From Candidatus Latescibacterota bacterium (GTDB lineage Bacteria > Latescibacterota > UBA2968 > GCA-2709665): 64,000 nt of DNA. The position numbers and the translations under genes were made by a program. The first letter of the stretch is position 1. Every line of letters begins with the position of its first letter. The notes beneath the pieces were generated by a model. That model was given only the letters and a program-made list of their open reading frames with translations. It did not search any database and was not told where the DNA came from. Below, one piece after another: positions 2,646 through 45,183 of the stretch. Location: contig CAXXJS010000037.1 in assembly GCA_963662665.2 (NCBI GenBank), positions 47,860-111,859 on the forward strand, given 5' to 3'.

Positions 2646-5416
2646 TGACAGCTTCCAAACCATCGCCGCTGAGCCCCAATCGCAGGATAAGGAAGTTCAA
2701 CCCCGGCACGCATCAATCTGACGAAGAGATTGTCGAGCAGTTTGTCGTTCGCAAACGCGAACTGGATGCCGTACTCGAGGTTCTCCGTGAAAACGTGAAT
2801 TCACCCTCCTGCCAGCACATAATGATCGTTGGCCCTCGCGGTCGGGGAAAAACCATTCTCCTGGTTCGGGTCGCCGCGGAGTTGCGGACCGACAAGCAAC
2901 TCTCAGAAAGCCTGTTTCCAGTCCGGTTCATGGAAGAGAGCCAGGAGATCTTCAATCTGGCCGACTTCTGGCTCGAGGCGCTGTTTCATCTCGCAAGGGA
3001 GACCGAGGAGCAGAATCCTGTCCTTTCGCGGAATCTGCGTGAAACGCATGGCGACCTTTCCTCGCGGTGGCGTGAACAGTCGCTCGAAGCGCTCGCCCGA
3101 GCCGCGGTTCTGGAAGCGGCGGACCGGCTGGACCGAAAACTCGTGCTTATGGTTGAGAACCTGCAATCGCTATGCGAAAACGTGGATGACAACTTCGGCT
3201 GGAAGCTTAGAGAGGCACTTCAGTCCGAACCTCAGGTCATGCTGCTTGCGTCCGCAACAAGTCGATTCGAGGGTCTTGACGACGTGGAGCAGCCCTTTTT
3301 CGAACTGTTTCGAAACATCAACTTGCAACCGCTGGACACAGATGAGTGTCGCCGCCTGTGGCTGGTCGTGAGCGGAGATAAAGTGAGTTCGCGGGAGATC
3401 AGGCCGATCCAGATCCTGACCGGCGGAAACCCGCGCCTTCTGGTCATCGTCGCGGAGTTTGCGAGACACCGCTCCCTGCGCAGGCTGATGGAAGAACTGG
3501 TAACGCTGATCGACGAGCACACGGAGTATTTTCGCGGACATCTGGAGGTCTTGGCGAAGACTGAGCGACGGGTGTACGTCTCGGTGATAGACCTCTGGAA
3601 GCCGTCGAGTCCCGGCGAAATCGCGGCGCGCGCTCGTACAGACGTGCGCATCGTATCGACGATGCTGGGGAGATTGGTCGAGCGGGGGGCTGTCACCGTG
3701 GAAGGCCGGGGACGAAAGAGACTATATGCCCCCGCGGAACCTCTCTACAGCATCTATTACAAGCTGCGGCGCGAGCGCGATGCGGCGGCCGTCGTGGAGA
3801 ATCTGATACACTTTATGGTGGCGTTCTACGACATTGGCGAGTTGGACGGAATTCGTGAACAGTTATATTCCGAGGCAATCGGTTCAGATATCATCCGCGC
3901 CGGATTAGACCGCGCGCTAGCGAAAATTCCACCTGCCAACGACAGTTACACGAAAAAAAAGTGGGATTTCGTCAAAGACGCTGCGGTTAAGGTTGAAGTC
4001 TATCATCAAGGAGTGGCTGAAAGACGGCTTGACAAAGATATCGAGGACGCGTTTCAGGTACATGCGTGGCAGAAAGTCATCGGAATCATCGATGAGGTGT
4101 TCACGTCCAGGAACATGGAATCTCGGAAATTGTCAGAAGCATTCATTGCCCGAATTATGCATGCGAAGGCCTTTGCGTACGAGCAACTTCGAGATTTTCA
4201 CGCGGTGATCACAGCGTGCGACGAGCTGGTCAAGCGCTTTGGCGAAAGCAGTAAGCCGGAAACTCAGACGAGGGTCGCTGCTGCGTTGTTGGATAAGGGC
4301 AGAGCGAAACAACAGATGAATGATCTGGAGGGAGCCACGTCAATCTACGATGAGGTCGTTGAGCGCGGTAGGGAAGGCGACATATCAAGTCTTCTGTGGT
4401 TGGCCGTCGCTGCATTACATTACACGGGAGAAGCCAGAAGGGAACAGGGTGATCTGAGGGGAGCCATTGTGGCGTTCGACGAAGTGGTCGAACTCTATAG
4501 CGAAAACAAACCACCAGATCTTCAGTTCTGGGTTGCAGCGTCGTTGGTTCGCAAAGCAGAAGCATTCAAGGAACAGGGCGATTTTGAGGAGGCCCTTTCG
4601 TTATGCGAGGAAGCAGTCAGGCGATTTGGCGAAAGCGTCGCGCCGGATGTTCAAAGCTGGATTGCCGGGGCACTGATCGATAAGGGAAGATTGAGAAAGG
4701 ATCAGGGCCATCTGGAGAAAGCCCTTGTAAACTTCCAGGATGTGGTCGAGCGTTACGGCGACGACGATGAGCCTGAACTCCGGAGGTATGTCGCTGGGGC
4801 GTTGATCGACATTGGAAGAACGAAAGAGGAACTGGGTGATCTTGTAGGAGCTATGGCATCATGGGATGAGATGGTCTCGCGCTATGGCAATAGCGACGAG
4901 ACCATTGTTCAAAGGCTTGTCACCGGTGCGTTGCTGGAAAAGGGCCGATGTCAGTCCGAAATGGGACATGCAGATGAAGCGCTACTGTTGTGTAAGGACC
5001 TCGAAAAAAGGGTTCGTGCTCTGGCCGGAAATGGAAATTGCCAATTCGCGTGGCAGATTTTGTGTATACGAACTCTGGCGCTGGCGGTCCGAGATGAGAA
5101 TGTAGCTGCTATGAATGTGTTTTGCTCGGTGTATGCCTCATTGCCTTCTGACAGCGAAGTTGGAATGAACTGGATGATAAGGCTCGTGCCCAACCTGCTC
5201 GCAGCCGGGGCCTCAGAACAGGAGCTCGTTGCAGTTCTTCTGACCGATCCCTCGAAATCCAGTACGCTGGCGCCTCTTGTCGTCGCGCTTCGCGAACGGC
5301 AGGGCGAGAGGGTTTATGCACCAGCGGAGGTTCGCGAGGTCGCTGCGGATGTGCGCAAGCTAATCGTCGACCGTGTGAAGAGTCGGGCGAATGCGACAGC
5401 AGATTCTCCGGCTTGA
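2645..5416 (+). CDS. STAND-like ATPase + winged-helix + TPR-like repeat protein
   Basis: Start overlaps the upstream stop (TAATG), GGAGG RBS; Walker A GPRGRGKT, atypical Walker B VLMVEN, GGNPR motif, wHTH SPGEIAARARTDVRIVSTMLGRLVERGAV, about 7 TPR-like repeats of 43 aa. Confidence 0.85.
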   Translation: MTASKPSPLSPNRRIRKFNPGTHQSDEEIVEQFVVRKRELDAVLEVLRENVNSPSCQHIMIVGPRGRGKTILLVRVAAELRTDKQLSESLFPVRFMEESQEIFNLADFWLEALFHLARETEEQNPVLSRNLRETHGDLSSRWREQSLEALARAAVLEAADRLDRKLVLMVENLQSLCENVDDNFGWKLREALQSEPQVMLLASATSRFEGLDDVEQPFFELFRNINLQPLDTDECRRLWLVVSGDKVSSREIRPIQILTGGNPRLLVIVAEFARHRSLRRLMEELVTLIDEHTEYFRGHLEVLAKTERRVYVSVIDLWKPSSPGEIAARARTDVRIVSTMLGRLVERGAVTVEGRGRKRLYAPAEPLYSIYYKLRRERDAAAVVENLIHFMVAFYDIGELDGIREQLYSEAIGSDIIRAGLDRALAKIPPANDSYTKKKWDFVKDAAVKVEVYHQGVAERRLDKDIEDAFQVHAWQKVIGIIDEVFTSRNMESRKLSEAFIARIMHAKAFAYEQLRDFHAVITACDELVKRFGESSKPETQTRVAAALLDKGRAKQQMNDLEGATSIYDEVVERGREGDISSLLWLAVAALHYTGEARREQGDLRGAIVAFDEVVELYSENKPPDLQFWVAASLVRKAEAFKEQGDFEEALSLCEEAVRRFGESVAPDVQSWIAGALIDKGRLRKDQGHLEKALVNFQDVVERYGDDDEPELRRYVAGALIDIGRTKEELGDLVGAMASWDEMVSRYGNSDETIVQRLVTGALLEKGRCQSEMGHADEALLLCKDLEKRVRALAGNGNCQFAWQILCIRTLALAVRDENVAAMNVFCSVYASLPSDSEVGMNWMIRLVPNLLAAGASEQELVAVLLTDPSKSSTLAPLVVALRERQGERVYAPAEVREVAADVRKLIVDRVKSRANATADSPA

Positions 5417-23780: not shown

Positions 23781-23952
23781 ACCATCTCCCGTCTAACGTC
23801 TATCCGTTCATCAGGCGCCCACATCATCTCCCGTCTAACGTCATTCCCTCTTCAAGACCCGCAACCCTGCGGTTCTCGAAGATAGAGAACATAATAAATG
23901 TGTCAAGCGGCGTCGGAGCAGGTAGGCAGTGAATTTCGAAAGAGATACTGAT

Positions 23953-35096: not shown

Positions 35097-36587
35097 ATGA
35101 TTCTATCCATCGACCAGGGCACCACGGGCACAACCGTGCTCGTTATCAATCGTGAAGGTGACGTTGCCGGCCGCGCTTATGCGGAATTCAGGCAGATTTA
35201 CCCCCAACCCGGTTGGGTTTCTCACGATGCGGAGGAGATCTGGCGCTCCACCGCTGGCGTGATTGCCGAGGCGATCCGCAACGCGGGCGTGCGCCTGACA
35301 TGTATTGCGGGTGTCGGGATAACCAACCAGCGGGAAACCACCGTCATATGGGACCGCCGCACAGGTGAACCGGTGCACGACGCCATTGTGTGGCAATGTC
35401 GCCGGACCGCCGACATTTGCAGGCGCTACCAGGAACGGGGTCTTGAAGAAGTGGTCCGCGAAAAGACCGGCCTCGTCATAGACGCCTACTTTTCCGCCAC
35501 CAAAATCGTCTGGCTCCTGGAAAACGTCCCCGGACTCCGTCGCCGGGCCGAAGCCGGCGACCTATGCTTCGGCACCATCGACACCTACCTCCTCCACCGT
35601 CTCACGAACGGCAAGGTTCACGCGACGGACCATACCAACGCCTCCCGCACCATGTGTTTCAATATCCACACGAAAGCGTGGGACGCGGACCTGCTGGACG
35701 TGTTCAACGTTCCGCGGGCGATCCTCCCGGAGGTCCACCCCTCCGCTCATGTGTTCGGCAATACCGCAGGCGCCGGTCCGCTTCCGGAAGGCATCCCCAT
35801 CGCGGGTATCGCTGGAGACCAGCAGGCTGCACTCTTCGGGCAGCGCGGCGTATCCGAGGGCGACGTCAAGAACACCTACGGTACCGGCTGCTTCGCCCTT
35901 TTCCACACGGGCCCGAACGCGTTTCCTTCCAGGAACGGCCTGCTCACCACGATAGCATGCGACAGCCGGGGCGGTCCCGCCTTCGCCCTGGAAGGATCGG
36001 TTTTCAGCGCCGGCTCAGCCGTTCAGTGGTTGCGCGACGGCCTCGGCCTGATCGCGCGTGCGGCCGAAACCGAAGCCCTTGCCAGATCCGTGCCGGACAA
36101 TGGCGGCGTCTACCTGGTGCCCGCATTTACGGGCCTCGGCGCGCCGTACTGGGACCCTGATGCCCGCGGGACGATCGTTGGCGTCAACCGCGGCACAGGA
36201 CGCGCCCACCTCGCGCGCGCCGCCCTGGAGTCCATCGCCTATCAAAGCGCCGCTCTCGTGGATGCGATGGCCGCCGATACGGGGCGTCCGGTCGCCGGAT
36301 TGCGCGTTGACGGCGGCGCTTCGGCGAACGATTTCCTGATGCAGTTCCAGGCAGACATCCTCGATACGCCGGTGATCCGGCCCCGCCACACGGAGACAAC
36401 CGCCCTGGGCGCCGCCATGCTGGCGGGCCTCGCGACCGGTTTCTGGACGGGACCGGACGCGCTTTCGGACCTGAACCCTCCCGAACGCACTTTCGAACCC
36501 TCCATGCCGGGAAAAAAGCGCGACGTCCTGCTCAAACGTTGGCGCCGTGCCGTACAAACCGCCAGGTACCACGGTAATCAGGAATAA
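35097..36587 (+). CDS. glpK: Glycerol kinase
   Basis: [67 protein letters not shown]. Confidence 0.97.
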
Positions 36588-36683
36588 AAAAAGCGATCAC
36601 ATGGATCGCTAATCGAGATAACAAAGGTCGAAAGTAGTGGTCACGTAGAATTTCCCCCACCCCCTAACTTCCCGAATTCCCTT

Positions 36684-36979
36684 GCCCTTTTTCTTTTTCG
36701 CCAAAGAAAAAGGGCCAAAAAGAACGGCGCCGCTCAGACGCCGCGGGGCTGCTTTTCCACGAATCGTCTCAAGGGAACTAAGGGACGGCATTGCCCTGAG
36801 AACGATGGGAGCGATACCGTACCAAGCTGCCGAACGGAATTACGCGGAAAAGCCCCTACCGCCCGGACCGTGCGCTTGAAGGGACCGCACGAGTTTGGAT
36901 ACGATGGTGATGTTGTACGTTAAAGCGCGGAACGCCTGGTTCTGGCCTTCGAGGTTGATGGTGAGCGGCGCGTTTTTTG
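36684..36979. other. ~300-nt highly base-paired non-coding element
   Basis: 13-bp perfect hairpin 36684-36715; long-range stem gcgccgctca 36727-36736 / tgagcggcgc 36962-36971; nested stems 36745-36758/36846-36856 and 36763-36775/36794-36806. Confidence 0.55.
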
Positions 36980-37051
36980 CCGCGAACAAAAGCCCCAACA
37001 CCACCCCCGGATGGCCATGAGGTATACTGCGAAGGCGTTTTGAACGTGTAT

Positions 37052-37414
37052 TCATGATATCAACCGAAAACTCCCGAGTTCGTTGGCCAGATTGAAGTAT
37101 TCTCGATCGTCCACGGCGTGGAGCGTTATTGCAGTAACGACACTCTTTCTCTTCAACGGGAAGAGAACGAAGTACCAAACCAGAAGACCAACAATGCCAA
37201 ATGGCCATGCGCCGGTGAGAGTCAGATAAACGGCCACGGCCATCGCGAACAATTCGAGCTTTCGAACAAACAGATTTAAAAGCAGAAAGCTCCAGGGCAG
37301 CTTCAACTCCAGCGCGCACCTGTTTCTCCACGTTACGTCGAATGCTACCTTTCCGCTATCACTCACGTGCCGGCGAAATGAATCCCAATCGAAAGAAGAC
37401 AATTGACCATCCAT
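37052..37414 (-). CDS. Small membrane hypothetical protein
   Basis: 120 aa with a central hydrophobic hairpin; starts 6 nt after the NYN stop; lower GC. Confidence 0.55.
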   Translation of the reverse strand: MDGQLSSFDWDSFRRHVSDSGKVAFDVTWRNRCALELKLPWSFLLLNLFVRKLELFAMAVAVYLTLTGAWPFGIVGLLVWYFVLFPLKRKSVVTAITLHAVDDREYFNLANELGSFRLIS

Positions 37415-37420
37415 TGCAAG

Positions 37421-38053
37421 TCAGTTTCCCCACCTTTTCGGACAACGCTGGATATGACCATCCTGCTTTTTTACTTCCAGTGGCAACCTACTCTTCCGAA
37501 ATCTGCTTTCTCTGATCGTAAATGCGTTCGTTGAAACCGTAGATAATTCGCTTGAATGTCTGCCGGGTGGGAAGGCAACAATGACTCGTTTTTGTGGATG
37601 GCGCGCAATTACTGCCGTTACCGGGGGAGAAAGATCACTGTCACCTGAGACCACTATTGCGGTGTCAAACCTGTCATCTTGCGCGTCACAGAGCAATTCA
37701 ACCGCGATCGTCACATCAGTCTTCTTTTCTTCGGCGCCGTACCACTCTGCTCCACACCGCCGGCAACGAACGGACTTATCTATATAATGGCCAAAATAAA
37801 ACTCGATACCCCCAATTGCTTCCAACGCTTCAAGGAATGTATTTTGGCGTTTCCATTTTCCCGAGTTTCCGGGTCTCTGAGATACACGTAAAGTGAAATA
37901 CTAGACCGCCTCCAACTGTTGAGAACCTTTCAGCAGGGATTGCGACAATCGCTTTAAATCAAGCCAGAGATAGCGATTATTCCACTTTTCCTTTATTCCA
38001 TAATAAAGGTTGAATCCGTCGATATATACAATAACCCGATTATTGTAACTCAT
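37421..38053 (-). pseudogene. NYN-domain (LabA/DUF88, PIN fold) RNase with one in-frame TAG
   Basis: MSYNNRVIVYIDGFNLYYG...WLDL...EAV*YFT (TAG at 37903-37901)...EEKKTDVTIA...IVVSGDSDL; the frame is otherwise intact over 211 codons. Confidence 0.85.
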
Positions 38054-38074
38054 TTTCCCTGTCATCGTTTCTTC

Positions 38075-38104
38075 TTGACAATTAGCCGGAAAGAGGTGTA
38101 TTTT
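38075..38104 (+). promoter_or_regulatory. Sigma70-like promoter divergent from the NYN gene
   Basis: TTGACA 38075-38080, 18-nt spacer, TATTTT 38099-38104. Confidence 0.6.
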
Positions 38105-38107
38105 TCA

Positions 38108-38189
38108 CGTGCTACGGCATATGTGCCCCCCGGAGGATAGTATTCTCCGGCCCGACGCCCACTGTCTTTGACGTGGGCGTTTCTTTTTT
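38108..38189 (+). ncRNA. Candidate ~80-nt structured small RNA
   Basis: Follows the promoter; gc-UACG-gc hairpin, ccggaggat/attctccgg stem 38130-38150, terminator acgcccac/gtgggcgt + ttctttttt; no + strand gene explains the terminator. Confidence 0.5.
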
Positions 38190-38324
38190 GGTTTTGACGC
38201 CTTCCGCTGCAGGCAGGCCGGAGGAGAGGTCCCCTCGACCGCGAATTGATATCGCTTGGCCATATCGAATACCGGTGGACGGGGTGTGGTCCTCTCCCTT
38301 CTAACGTCTCCCCTCTCCCCGCTT

Positions 38325-39998
38325 TTATTCGTCCGTCACGCAACCCTCGGAAGCCGTTGTCACGGTCTTGATATATTTGTAGAGCGTTCCCTGCGTGGCT
38401 TTGTATGGCGGGGCCTCCCATGCCGCACGTCGATTCGCCAGTTCCTCATTGCTCAGGTCAACGTTGATCTCGTTGGACTCGGCGTCGATTGTAATCACGT
38501 CCCCGTTCTCGACAAGGGCGACCGTGCCGCCCACCTGCGCTTCGGGCGTGATGTGTCCCACGACAAATCCGTGCGAGCCTCCGGAGAACCGTCCGTCCGT
38601 AATCAGCGCCACGTCATTGCCCAGGCCCGCTCCCATAATCACCGACGTGGGCGTGAGCATCTCAGGCATGCCAGGCCCGCCCGTAGGCCCCTCATAACGG
38701 ATAACCACCACACATCCCTTCTTCACCTCGTTTCGCTCCACTGCGCCGAGGAGATCCTCCTCGCGATCGAACACCATCGCGGGCCCTGAGAACCGCACCC
38801 CTTCCTTTCCCGTGATCTTGGCGACCGCGCCTTCCGCCGCCAGGTTTCCCCTCAGAATCCGAAGATGCCCCGTGGCCTTGATCGGCCGGTCCATCGGTCG
38901 AACGACCTGCTGTCCCTCGTCAAGCCCGGGCAACGCCGCGAGGTTTTCCCCAATCGTCTTTCCAGTTACCGTAAGACAGTCTCCATACAGAAGGCCGTTT
39001 TCCAGCAGAAGCTTCATCGCGCCCGGCGTTCCGCCCACGTTGTGCAGATCTTCCATCACATAGAGCCCGCTTGGCTTGAAGTCCGCCAACAACGGCACCC
39101 GGTCGCTCACTGCTTGAAAATCGTCGATCGAGAGCGCAACGCCCACAGACTTTGCAATCGCAACCAGATGCAGCACTGCGTTGGTCGATCCGCCGAGGGC
39201 CATCACGACCACCATCGCGTTCTCGAACGCCTCGCGGGTCATAATGTCCCGGGGTTTGATGTCCTTCTCGAGCAGGTTACGGATGGCCGCGCCGGACTGG
39301 AAGCACTCCTCCAGCTTTCCCTTGTCCACGGCCGGCGTCGAAGAACTATAAGGCAGCGACATACCCATCGCTTCGATGGCGGACGCCATCGTGTTCGCGG
39401 TGTACATACCGCCGCACGCGCCGGCCCCCGGACAGGCGTGCTGCACGACGCCCTTCCTGGCTTCCTCGTCCAGATCGCCGGCCAGGTACTCACCGTAACT
39501 CTGGAAGGCGGACACGATGTCGAGCTTCTTGTGGTCGCGGAAACCCGGTTTGATCGTACCTCCATAAATCATCAATGACGGCCGGTTCAATCGCCCCATG
39601 GCCATCACGCAGCCCGGCATGTTCTTGTCGCAACCGGGCAGGGATATATTGGCGTCGTACCACTGGGCACCCATCACCGTCTCAATCGAATCGGCGATGA
39701 GGTCCCGCGACTGAAGCGAAAAGCTCATGCCCTCCGTGCCCATGGAAATCCCGTCGCTCACGCCAATGGTGTTGAATCGCATGCCCAGCAGACCCGCCGC
39801 ATCCACGCCCTGCTTCACCTTTGCGGCGAGGTCCAGCAGGTGCATATTACAGGTGTTTCCCTCGTACCACATGCTGGCGATGCCCACCTGCGCCTTGTCC
39901 ATATCCGCTTCGGTCATTCCCGTTCCGTACAACATCGCCTGGGACGCGCCCTGGGATTTCACCTGCGTAATCCGGGAGCTGTACTTGTTCAATGCCAT
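38325..39998 (-). CDS. ilvD: Dihydroxy-acid dehydratase
   Basis: [68 protein letters not shown]. Confidence 0.97.
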
Positions 39999-40130
39999 GG
40001 GGTTCCTTTCCTGGTTGTCGCCCTGAAACCGTATTGTCCGCGGTTCCGTGTCAATTCCATTTTGTATTCGTTCAATCGAGATTTAATTTAATTGAATGCG
40101 GGACACCAGTCAACTGCCGGAAAATCGGGT

Positions 40131-40480
40131 AGAGGGGAGCCGGGAGACGGGAGAGGAAAAACCTGAAAGCGGGGAGAGGGTAGAGGTGAGACGGGAGAAG
40201 ACGTCTTTGCCCGATTGGTTCTTCCTTTATGCCTCCGGCAAGAAATGAAACCGCACGAGGCAGGAAATCTCTCACGTCTTACGTCTCCCATCTCCCCCGG
40301 GGCATGGGTTCGGGTGGAGAAACGACCAGGCACTCATATCGTCTCACGTCTCCCCTATCACCGCTTCTGAGGGGCCGGGAGAGAGGTTCCGTCCGTATCG
40401 CCGACAGATTTCGCCAGTCCGTATCGATATCCGGTGAGCGACGGGTGATCATCTCCCCTCTCCCGTCTCACGTCTCCCCG
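40131..40480. repeat. Dispersed ~75-bp element copy 2 (40198-40272) embedded in inverted GAGACG/CGTCTC short repeats
   Basis: Core matches 23705-23780; gggagacgggagagg/gtgagacgggag upstream, ctcacgtcttacgtctccc and ctcccgtctcacgtctcccc downstream. Confidence 0.75.
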
Positions 40481-40544
40481 AATCAATTGACCGTGAAAAA
40501 CGAGAAGGGCGAATCAAGACGGTAGAAGAAGGACGAGACAAACC

Positions 40545-44823: not shown

Positions 44824-45183
44824 GGGGGCGACCTGGATTCGACGGGGGTGGAGAGGCGATGGCTGCGTGTCGAGGTCCCATGTCCTCGTTAAACTGTGGG
44901 AACACTATATAATTGCGGACGATACGTACGCAATGGCTGCGTAACTAAAACGCAGTCCGTTCTGACGGGCTTCGCCTGCAGGGCCCGACCGGAGCGCCGA
45001 CTTATGCGGGCTGGCTCGTGGACCTCCGTTCGAGGGTCCGTGAGCGAGAGCTTATCGAACTGGCGCGTTGGCAACCCCGTTTACCGGGGCGCCCGCGCGT
45101 GAGATTCAAAAGGTAAACTACACACGTAGACGCTGTCGTTGATTTGCTTTCGGACGCGGGTTCGATTCCCGCCGCCTCCACCA
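44824..45183 (+). ncRNA. ssrA: tmRNA, tag peptide (A)ADDTYAMAA*
   Basis: 5' GGGGGCGACCTGGATTCGAC; 3' GGGTTCGATTCCCGCCGCCTCCACCA; G3.U acceptor pair; ATAATT upstream of the resume codon GCG 44915, stop at 44944. Confidence 0.96.

Follow-up and report, generated by a model that had tools for sequence, protein, structure and literature searches.

In type III toxin-antitoxin systems (ToxIN, CptIN, TenpIN, AbiQ/antiQ), an endoribonuclease is encoded adjacent to a structured RNA that is made in excess (from a strong promoter, sometimes in tandem copies), and the pair serves in defence or abortive infection. The anticodon nuclease PrrC, which joins an ABC ATPase to a nuclease domain, is encoded within the EcoprrI type I restriction-modification locus and is held by the restriction-modification proteins. 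Here we describe a NYN-domain ribonuclease (RNase) gene of the LabA/DUF88 type and, head-to-head with it, the gene of a small structured RNA, in a 64,000-nucleotide (nt) stretch of a Candidatus Latescibacterota bacterium (assembly GCA_963662665.2, contig CAXXJS010000037.1; hereafter the window, with positions counted from its first letter). The encoded protein belongs to HEC-09, a candidate defence family of the PADLOC database, and the same RNA accompanies 79 of the 80 related NYN loci that we compared; both the reality of this RNA gene family and its linkage to NYN we regard as close to certain.

As characterized in the available part of the work by Payne et al., HEC-09 (Hma-embedded candidate 9) is a NYN protein embedded in Hma systems and structurally like MARF1 (bioRxiv 10.1101/2024.01.29.577857). 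That study handles HEC-09 as a single-gene candidate, and its main text uses the term 'non-coding' 0 times and mentions no RNA (bioRxiv 10.1101/2024.01.29.577857). Another bacterial NYN-domain protein in an immune locus, the CRISPR-associated NYN of Bacteroides fragilis, appears in the available text as a non-specific Mn-dependent single-stranded RNase with a proposed role in crRNA trimming; set beside HEC-09 by description, it differs in that this text gives it no dedicated small RNA gene of the HEC-09 kind (PMC11346440). The window NYN falls into the same protein family as HEC-09 by the full-length match of P0001, an intact 210-amino-acid (aa) homologue that is 98% identical to it; unlike the published HEC-09, however, the window copy is broken and lies outside any Hma system. 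The parts of the window module are as follows:

37421..38053, minus strand: NYN (LabA/DUF88-type, PADLOC HEC-09) ribonuclease gene, 210 codons with one premature stop, ATG at 38053
37901..37903, minus strand: in-frame TAG at codon 51 of NYN, located by translation and homologue alignment
38075..38104, plus strand: sigma-70-type promoter of the small RNA (TTGACA 38075-38080, 18-nt spacer, TATTTT 38099-38104; score 10/12)
38105..38119, plus strand: lineage-specific 5' leader, unconserved, forming most of hairpin 1 (38106-38125); the covariance match begins at 38120
38120..38190, plus strand: conserved core of the NYN-associated small RNA, made up of the 5' tail, P1, the linker CCCGA, and P2 with terminator (cmsearch with model R1, 53.4 bits, expectation value (E) 1e-12)
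38130..38150, plus strand: P1 hairpin, CCGGAG/CUCCGG plus G.U and A-U pairs, loop UAGUA
38155..38189, plus strand: P2 hairpin and U tract, an intrinsic terminator (hairpin 38155-38180, base GACGC/GCGU; U tract 38180-38189)

An earlier sequence-only reading of this DNA had proposed a TTGACA-18-TATTTT promoter 22 nt from the NYN start, and the promoter is indeed present (10/12), beginning 22 nt from the NYN ATG and directed away from NYN; a scan over 2 kb returned 3 promoter-like sites, compared with 1.2 +/- 1.1 in shuffled sequence. Also present are the hairpins and plus-strand U-tract terminator that it had described between two genes that both lie on the minus strand: positions 38105-38192 fold into three hairpins (-35.9 kcal/mol, z = -3.24), and 1/200 shuffles folded just as well. 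The third of these hairpins (38155-38180) carries a UUU loop on a stem of 11 pairs with one bulge and is followed by UUUCUUUUUU; our terminator scan overlooked it because the loop rule of that scan forbids a bulge. The conserved RNA, however, is shorter at its 5' end than the element drawn there, in that the core at 38120-38190 is conserved whereas the cUACGg-capped hairpin 1 (38106-38125) is unconserved in relatives. In the window, 15 nt separate the end of the -10 box from position 1 of the covariance model, and relatives have their promoter some 10-12 nt nearer the core; we therefore take hairpin 1 as a local 5' extension outside the conserved RNA. The window P1 stem is one pair longer than in the family, whose P1 loop consensus is (G)AUAGCAU(C).

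We searched for the RNA beside relatives of the NYN protein, 1356 of which were found at E<=0.001 (typically ~206 aa); a genome scan with one genome per species confirmed 520 loci, and the best 80 were kept and examined. These 80 have 42-52% identity and come from more than 10 phyla (Proteobacteria, Chloroflexota, Bacteroidota, Planctomycetota, Actinomycetota, Ignavibacteriota, Acidobacteriota, Verrucomicrobiota, KSB1 and others). Short-word blastn of the window intergenic region matched the same two short stretches in many loci, ~100-180 nt upstream of NYN and on the opposite strand, and the upstream regions nearly everywhere present the same order of elements, namely promoter, AACCCCGCC, a hairpin such as CCGGAGAUAGCAUCUCCGG, CCCGAC, a GC hairpin and UUUCUUUU. 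From 46 aligned instances (alignment A2) we built the covariance model R1 (65 positions, 16 pairs), and searched both strands of the window and the 80 loci (680,826 bases) with it. This search gave 89 matches at E<=0.01, 88 of them with E<2e-8, in the window and in 79/80 NYN loci, including 34 loci that had contributed nothing to the seed; the sole negative locus (L070) has only 115 nt upstream of the NYN match on its contig, with a TTGACA promoter visible at the contig edge. Every match lies within ~2.3 kb of the NYN gene, and the window holds no second one. Conserved sequence across phyla comprises the 5' tail AAC..C.C, the P1 loop, the linker YYGAC and the base of P2. The conserved promoter, covarying stems and terminator upstream of NYN homologues that the sequence-only reading had named as a check are thus found, with the RNA in 79/80 loci and covariation in 16/16 pairs.

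The RNA matches no Rfam family in the search that this reading had also asked for. Rfam returned for positions 36500-39500, at E<=10, only a chance RefA5 match elsewhere (on the palindrome at ~36684-36716/~36588-36612; E 2.7), for the whole window only tmRNA, and for the best-scoring relatives (L003 and L072; Rfam 15) nothing above 18.5 bits, all far below the gathering scores of 37-100 bits; identity with an Rfam family was accordingly dropped. Nor is the RNA a dispersed repeat: within the window, blastn detected no further copy of the RNA part of the intergenic region, and only the distal end of that region (38289-38325) recurred, as a member of a separate short repeat family. Comparison of the 71-nt RNA with E. 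coli genomes and plasmids by blastn gave no match at E<=0.1, a negative of no weight, as the method also missed a Thermus plasmid copy which R1 finds. The literature searched, with subscription journals mostly outside its coverage, yielded no published description of a NYN-linked small RNA. The RNA partner is therefore an addition to a known candidate protein family, HEC-09, and, being absent from Rfam 15, would be a new RNA family.

Covariation supports the fold of this RNA throughout. In alignment A3, whose fitting to the model favours structure, 97.9% of 1394 cells form standard pairs and 16/16 pairs have changed on both sides (283 cells), with 8/8 modelled pairs covarying in P1 (96.3% of cells paired) and 8/8 in P2 (99.6% paired). 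The covariation score is 0.596 vs. 0.204 in shuffles, none of 500 of which reached the observed value, and sliding the partner columns by 1-3 positions lowers pairing to 35-52%. Within the pairs, G.U/U.G occurs 67 times vs. 8 times for A.C/C.A, an excess that places selection for the fold on the RNA strand, opposite NYN, where the promoter and the U tract also lie. Likenesses of P1 to a tRNA anticodon loop, an RNase P minihelix and a GNRA-like pentaloop, considered by eye, were dropped, as none fits all loop variants.

Expression signals accompany the fold. A sigma-70-like promoter of at least 9/12 lies within 50 nt upstream of 57/89 RNA copies vs. 27/1780 random segments from the same loci, and one of at least 10/12 upstream of 39/89 copies vs. 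4/1780 segments; close upstream of 19 copies we also find TAnnTTTG, which we take to be the Bacteroidota -7 box. The -10 box mostly ends 1-7 nt before model position 1, which places the predicted RNA 5' end near the conserved AAC, and a U tract follows P2 in the aligned copies. These signals bear on the idea that there is no functional RNA at all, and that the element is a DNA-level cassette boundary, a recombination site or a promoter-plus-terminator insulator carried with a mobile NYN gene. The module does shift between very different operons and phyla, and mobile cassettes commonly have hairpin-forming ends; against this, the promoters match the host type in Proteobacteria and Bacteroidota, and U tracts on one strand only, the excess of G.U over A.C and the conserved loop would be unexpected for a DNA site or a bare terminator. 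We consider this explanation highly improbable.

The arrangement of the two genes is strongly biased yet variable. Among the 89 copies, 82 are divergent and upstream of NYN, with a gap from the NYN ATG to the model 5' end of 63 nt in the median (range 35-191, apart from an outlier of 2281 nt in L047); another 6, likewise on the opposite strand, are downstream of NYN (L010 has four, L016 and L055 one apiece); and 1 lies on the NYN strand directly upstream of NYN (L052). By cmsearch, 73/80 sources with a match have a single copy and 7 loci have 2-4, the additional copies seen by eye or regular expression being a second in L013, L015 and L034 and a third in L008. Downstream of NYN in L010 (4656-5035), four tandem small-RNA genes follow one another ~103-106 nt apart, each with its own TTGACA/-10 promoter and terminator.

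We also applied R1, with filters off, to annotated records, in which nothing is annotated at the RNA position. On Thermus oshimai plasmid pTHEOS01 it found the RNA in divergent orientation to NYN (61 bits); in a Streptomyces plasmid (41.5 bits) and a phage contig (30.6 bits), the RNA directly precedes NYN on the NYN strand. The Thermus record (L081, strain JL-2, 2882-3618) is a case of an intact module in a cultured strain, with the RNA at 2882-2942, a NYN of 54.6% identity and a helicase-related gene upstream. Gene 6 of Mycobacterium phage prophiGD43A-1 (L084), a NYN homologue of 37% identity between the integrase and the immunity repressor, has only a weak RNA-like match just downstream (11.7 bits, E 0.27). 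At distant NYN genes of E. coli plasmids (L082/L083/L087; 33-35% identity), Methylobacterium (L086; 38%), Leptospira (L088) and Granulicella (L090; both ~32-33%), R1 found no RNA, so the RNA marks the HEC-09 clade and not all NYN genes. On E. coli/Salmonella plasmids of 3.4-4.3 kb (L083, NZ_CP091701.1; L087, NZ_CP080176.1; L082), the distant NYN faces a divergent helix-turn-helix gene ~320-330 nt away, a pair that may be a protein-controlled counterpart.

The divergent layout allows promoter competition or antisense action on read-through transcripts, as a rival to control of the protein or as an added layer. On this account, NYN would be transcribed mostly by read-through from its upstream neighbour and the RNA would be a cis antisense or transcription-interference element, its convergent promoter and complementary transcript limiting the expression of NYN by a type I logic, which would suit the 82/89 divergent copies at a median of 63 nt from the ATG (leaving no room for a separate NYN promoter), the upstream neighbour on the NYN strand in 60/77 loci, and the perfect complementarity that a read-through transcript would have to the RNA. 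Such pairing requires no sequence conservation, however, whereas copies from different phyla do share loop and tail sequence, and the bias of G.U over A.C points to a selected fold of the RNA itself; 6 copies are downstream, 3 are on the NYN strand (L052, L085, L089) and 1 is 2.3 kb away (L047). Pairing in trans with the NYN translation start was tried and rejected, since the cognate start has a median RNAduplex rank of 33 (5' tail) or 42 (whole RNA) out of 79 and is thus no better than non-cognate starts. The option of an antisense regulator of the NYN leader, raised in the sequence-only reading, is weakened by these positions and by the conservation of loop and single-stranded sequence, and we think antisense control unlikely. 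Comparison with type I toxin-antitoxin systems points the same way: the toxin candidate is a 210-aa enzyme and not a small hydrophobic peptide, the RNA, as seen from the ATG, comes after its own promoter, and pairing with the cognate start region is not preferred.

On the protein side, the window NYN product matches Pfam PF01936 over residues 6-174 (E 1.4e-14, 55.3 bits against a cut-off of 24.2) and so belongs to the NYN family; Pfam gives NYN alone for it, and PADLOC only the HEC-09 and NYN models, with no match to the ToxN, AbiQ, CptN or TenpN toxins. The PADLOC HEC-09 model PDLC04163 covers P0001 at full length (E 2.5e-82, residues 5-208 on profile positions 2-202 of 203) and likewise the L001 homologue (E 5.5e-92), while NCBIfam holds no model for this protein. 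A structure model of P0001 (pLDDT 89.9, pTM 0.86) has as its best PDB matches 2qip (E 5.8e-11) and the NYN domain of MARF1 (6fdl/5yaa), and seven residues (D12, N15, E109, D113, D130, D138, D140) are invariant across 42 sequences. With its modelled NYN fold and invariant acidic residues, the HEC-09 protein looks like an active RNase.

The window copy itself does not have an intact reading frame, as codon 51 is TAG where P0001 and the next two closest homologues have Lys and others Arg, His or Cys. A reading of TAG as a sense codon was ruled out: TAG closes 7/37 long open reading frames of the window, and the codon-51 TAG is thus an ordinary nonsense mutation. Because the RNase is broken while the RNA gene is intact, we regard the window module as a decaying remnant, a pattern that fits loss of the toxin first.

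The relatives recur in defence islands, in line with the earlier proposal of a defence-module candidate. The immediate upstream neighbour lies on the NYN strand in 60/77 loci and the downstream neighbour in 51/76. Of the upstream neighbours of 77 loci scanned with PADLOC at E<=1e-10, 28 match a defence family, distributed by best hit as follows:

HmaA: 11/77
Restriction-modification: 7/77 (Type I 4, Type IIG 2, Type III 1)
PD-Lambda-4_A: 2 of 77; PDC-S01: 2 of 77
BrxC, Cas3 and Cas9: 1 each of 77
Dsr1, HKD+Snf2 and HTH_VI: 1 each of 77

HmaB follows NYN in 12 loci, NYN in relatives is embedded between hmaA and hmaB, and in L065, L071 and L072 the module sits among hsdM, hsdS and hsdR. The likeness to PrrC lies here, in an RNase gene nested within a restriction-modification operon (as in these three loci, and in the Hma loci), and by analogy this nesting suggests a latent backstop role for NYN; PrrC differs in its fold and in being restrained by restriction-modification proteins rather than by an RNA.

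Starting from the observed RNA family, with its structure, strand, promoters and terminators, its near-obligate linkage to NYN and its defence-island context, we infer as most likely a mechanism that adds RNA binding, inhibition, toxicity and a trigger. Its two parts would be a small RNA gene of ~60-80 nt, with its own strong promoter, an 8-9 bp covarying P1 and the terminator hairpin P2, and a putative NYN-fold metal-dependent endoribonuclease of the HEC-09 family. The RNA would be produced in excess and, bound to the protein in trans, would keep the RNase inactive in the manner of a type III antitoxin; if RNA synthesis halted or the RNA were degraded (e.g., when a phage infects or the element is lost), the freed RNase would cleave cellular or phage RNA and growth would arrest, so that the module could act as a backstop within restriction-modification, Hma and BREX loci. 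Action in trans on the protein is suggested because the sequence of the loop, 5' tail and linker is conserved across phyla, because position and orientation relative to NYN vary without loss of the RNA, because pairing with the cognate NYN start is no better than with others, and because the fold is selected on the RNA strand. Near-consensus promoters, the occasional 2-4 copies and the lack of room for a NYN promoter together point to a large excess of RNA.

A competing account makes the RNA an activating cofactor or scaffold, with NYN working only as a ribonucleoprotein in which the RNA, instead of inhibiting it, would help it to recognise substrates, to assemble or to sense a phage cue. The near-obligate co-occurrence (79/80 loci) is what this account would expect, the conserved loop and single-stranded segments suit specific protein contacts, and in the available text of Payne et al. 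HEC-09 gave neither toxicity nor protection, which, provided that the clone took in the upstream sequence, would fit a trigger-dependent system. The unpaired parts of the RNA, on the other hand, are conserved rather than variable, which makes a programmable guide (another suggestion of the sequence-only reading, and one we set aside) unlikely; up to four RNA genes with their own near-consensus promoters imply a large RNA excess, which one would sooner expect of an antitoxin than of a cofactor in 1:1 ratio; and the window retains the RNA after loss of the RNase. The RNA excess, the three loci in ToxIN-like order and the window RNase being the broken part lead us to favour an inhibitor over a cofactor, without amounting to proof, and we judge the cofactor account improbable.

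Comparison with type III systems cuts both ways. The likeness consists in an RNase gene with a dedicated structured small RNA alongside, in the strong promoter and tandem copies of some loci, in the defence context, and in the order promoter, RNA, terminator, RNase on one strand in L052, L085 and L089. The differences are that HEC-09 has a NYN/PIN-like fold and not that of ToxN or AbiQ, and that in place of a tandem-repeat array upstream of the toxin on its own strand the RNA is usually single, self-terminated and divergent.

Several observations weigh against the inhibitory mechanism or limit its reach. Most loci carry a single unit and not a repeat array, each copy with its own terminator and 82/89 divergent, which is unlike known type III systems; near-obligate co-occurrence suits an essential cofactor equally well; and the broken RNase beside an intact RNA is a single case. 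The loci compared are the best 80 of 520, and the covariation counts derive from a model-fitted alignment, although the margin over controls is large and the same compensations appear in the seed alignment made with MAFFT. In the available part of their study, Payne et al. saw no protection by HEC-09 against the phages tested, and HEC-09 was not among their toxic constructs (bioRxiv 10.1101/2024.01.29.577857). The HEC-09 clone took ~150 bp of upstream sequence 'where possible', according to the same text, and may or may not include the RNA (bioRxiv 10.1101/2024.01.29.577857).

Taking these points together, our confidence in the statement as a whole, a two-part mobile module in which an antitoxin-like RNA holds the NYN RNase inactive, stops a little below the halfway mark. 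We see an evenly balanced case for the more general proposition of a widespread and previously undescribed RNA-controlled immune or addiction module, in which a structured small RNA, recognised via its conserved hairpin loop, would directly govern a NYN-fold RNase, with the ~0.9-kb unit moving across more than 10 phyla and forming a backstop inside loci of restriction-modification, Hma, BREX and CRISPR systems.

Surveys of defence systems list HEC-09 as an orphan candidate of one gene that shows no activity; if the unit is an RNase plus an RNA, its annotation, its testing and its presumed mechanism all change, and the same could explain the absence of a phenotype for the 'single gene'. Such a module, if real, would extend type III-like RNA-antitoxin control to the PIN/NYN superfamily, the RNA here being transcribed on its own and not built of repeats; RNA-based toxin control would gain a toxin fold and an RNA architecture that are both new. 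The pair is compact and phylogenetically broad, comes with a ready covariance model, and offers a testable hypothesis for how nested RNases are silenced in restriction-modification, BREX and Hma operons.

The surroundings of the window module comprise the following features:

36600..38200, no strand: low-GC island (GC 0.44-0.55 vs. 0.60-0.68 in the flanks) that holds the module and two small unrelated open reading frames
38325-39998, minus strand: ilvD, upstream of NYN and on the same strand
37052-37414 and 36840-37055, minus strand: two small open reading frames directly downstream of NYN, inside the low-GC island

The lower GC that the sequence-only reading had noted is borne out, at 0.44-0.50 over ~37000-38200 vs. 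0.60-0.68 on both sides. The island sits between a convergent glpK-like gene (FGGY kinase) and ilvD, so that the neighbours of the window NYN are ilvD, the glpK-like kinase and the two small open reading frames, with no Hma or other defence system around it. Pfam, PADLOC and NCBIfam returned nothing for the latter two, which also lack homologues in the 80 NYN loci, and as candidate partners of the module they were set aside as unrelated. By eye, the 120-aa one looks like a membrane-spanning protein, and no more than 4 close homologue clusters (60-90% identity) were found for it.

At the other end of the island, the minus strand carries a long, perfect, A/T-rich palindrome (~36684-36716 and ~36588-36612; GGCCCTTTTTCTTT ... 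AAAGAAAAAGGGC), and directly next to the stop codon of the glpK-like gene lies a hairpin followed by a T tract; both are probably terminators that close the island. A CT-rich short dispersed repeat (~25-37 nt, e.g., TCTCCCGTCTCACGTCTCCCC) occurs at 38289-38325, 40122-40202, 40277-40301, 40342-40366, 40457-40483 and ~23785-23842, and brackets ilvD in inverted orientation (38289-38325 vs. 40166-40202, 86% complementary); this repeat resembles a REP element and is distinct from the small RNA. The tmRNA gene of the window lies at 44824-45183 on the plus strand (Rfam RF00023, 208.9 bits).

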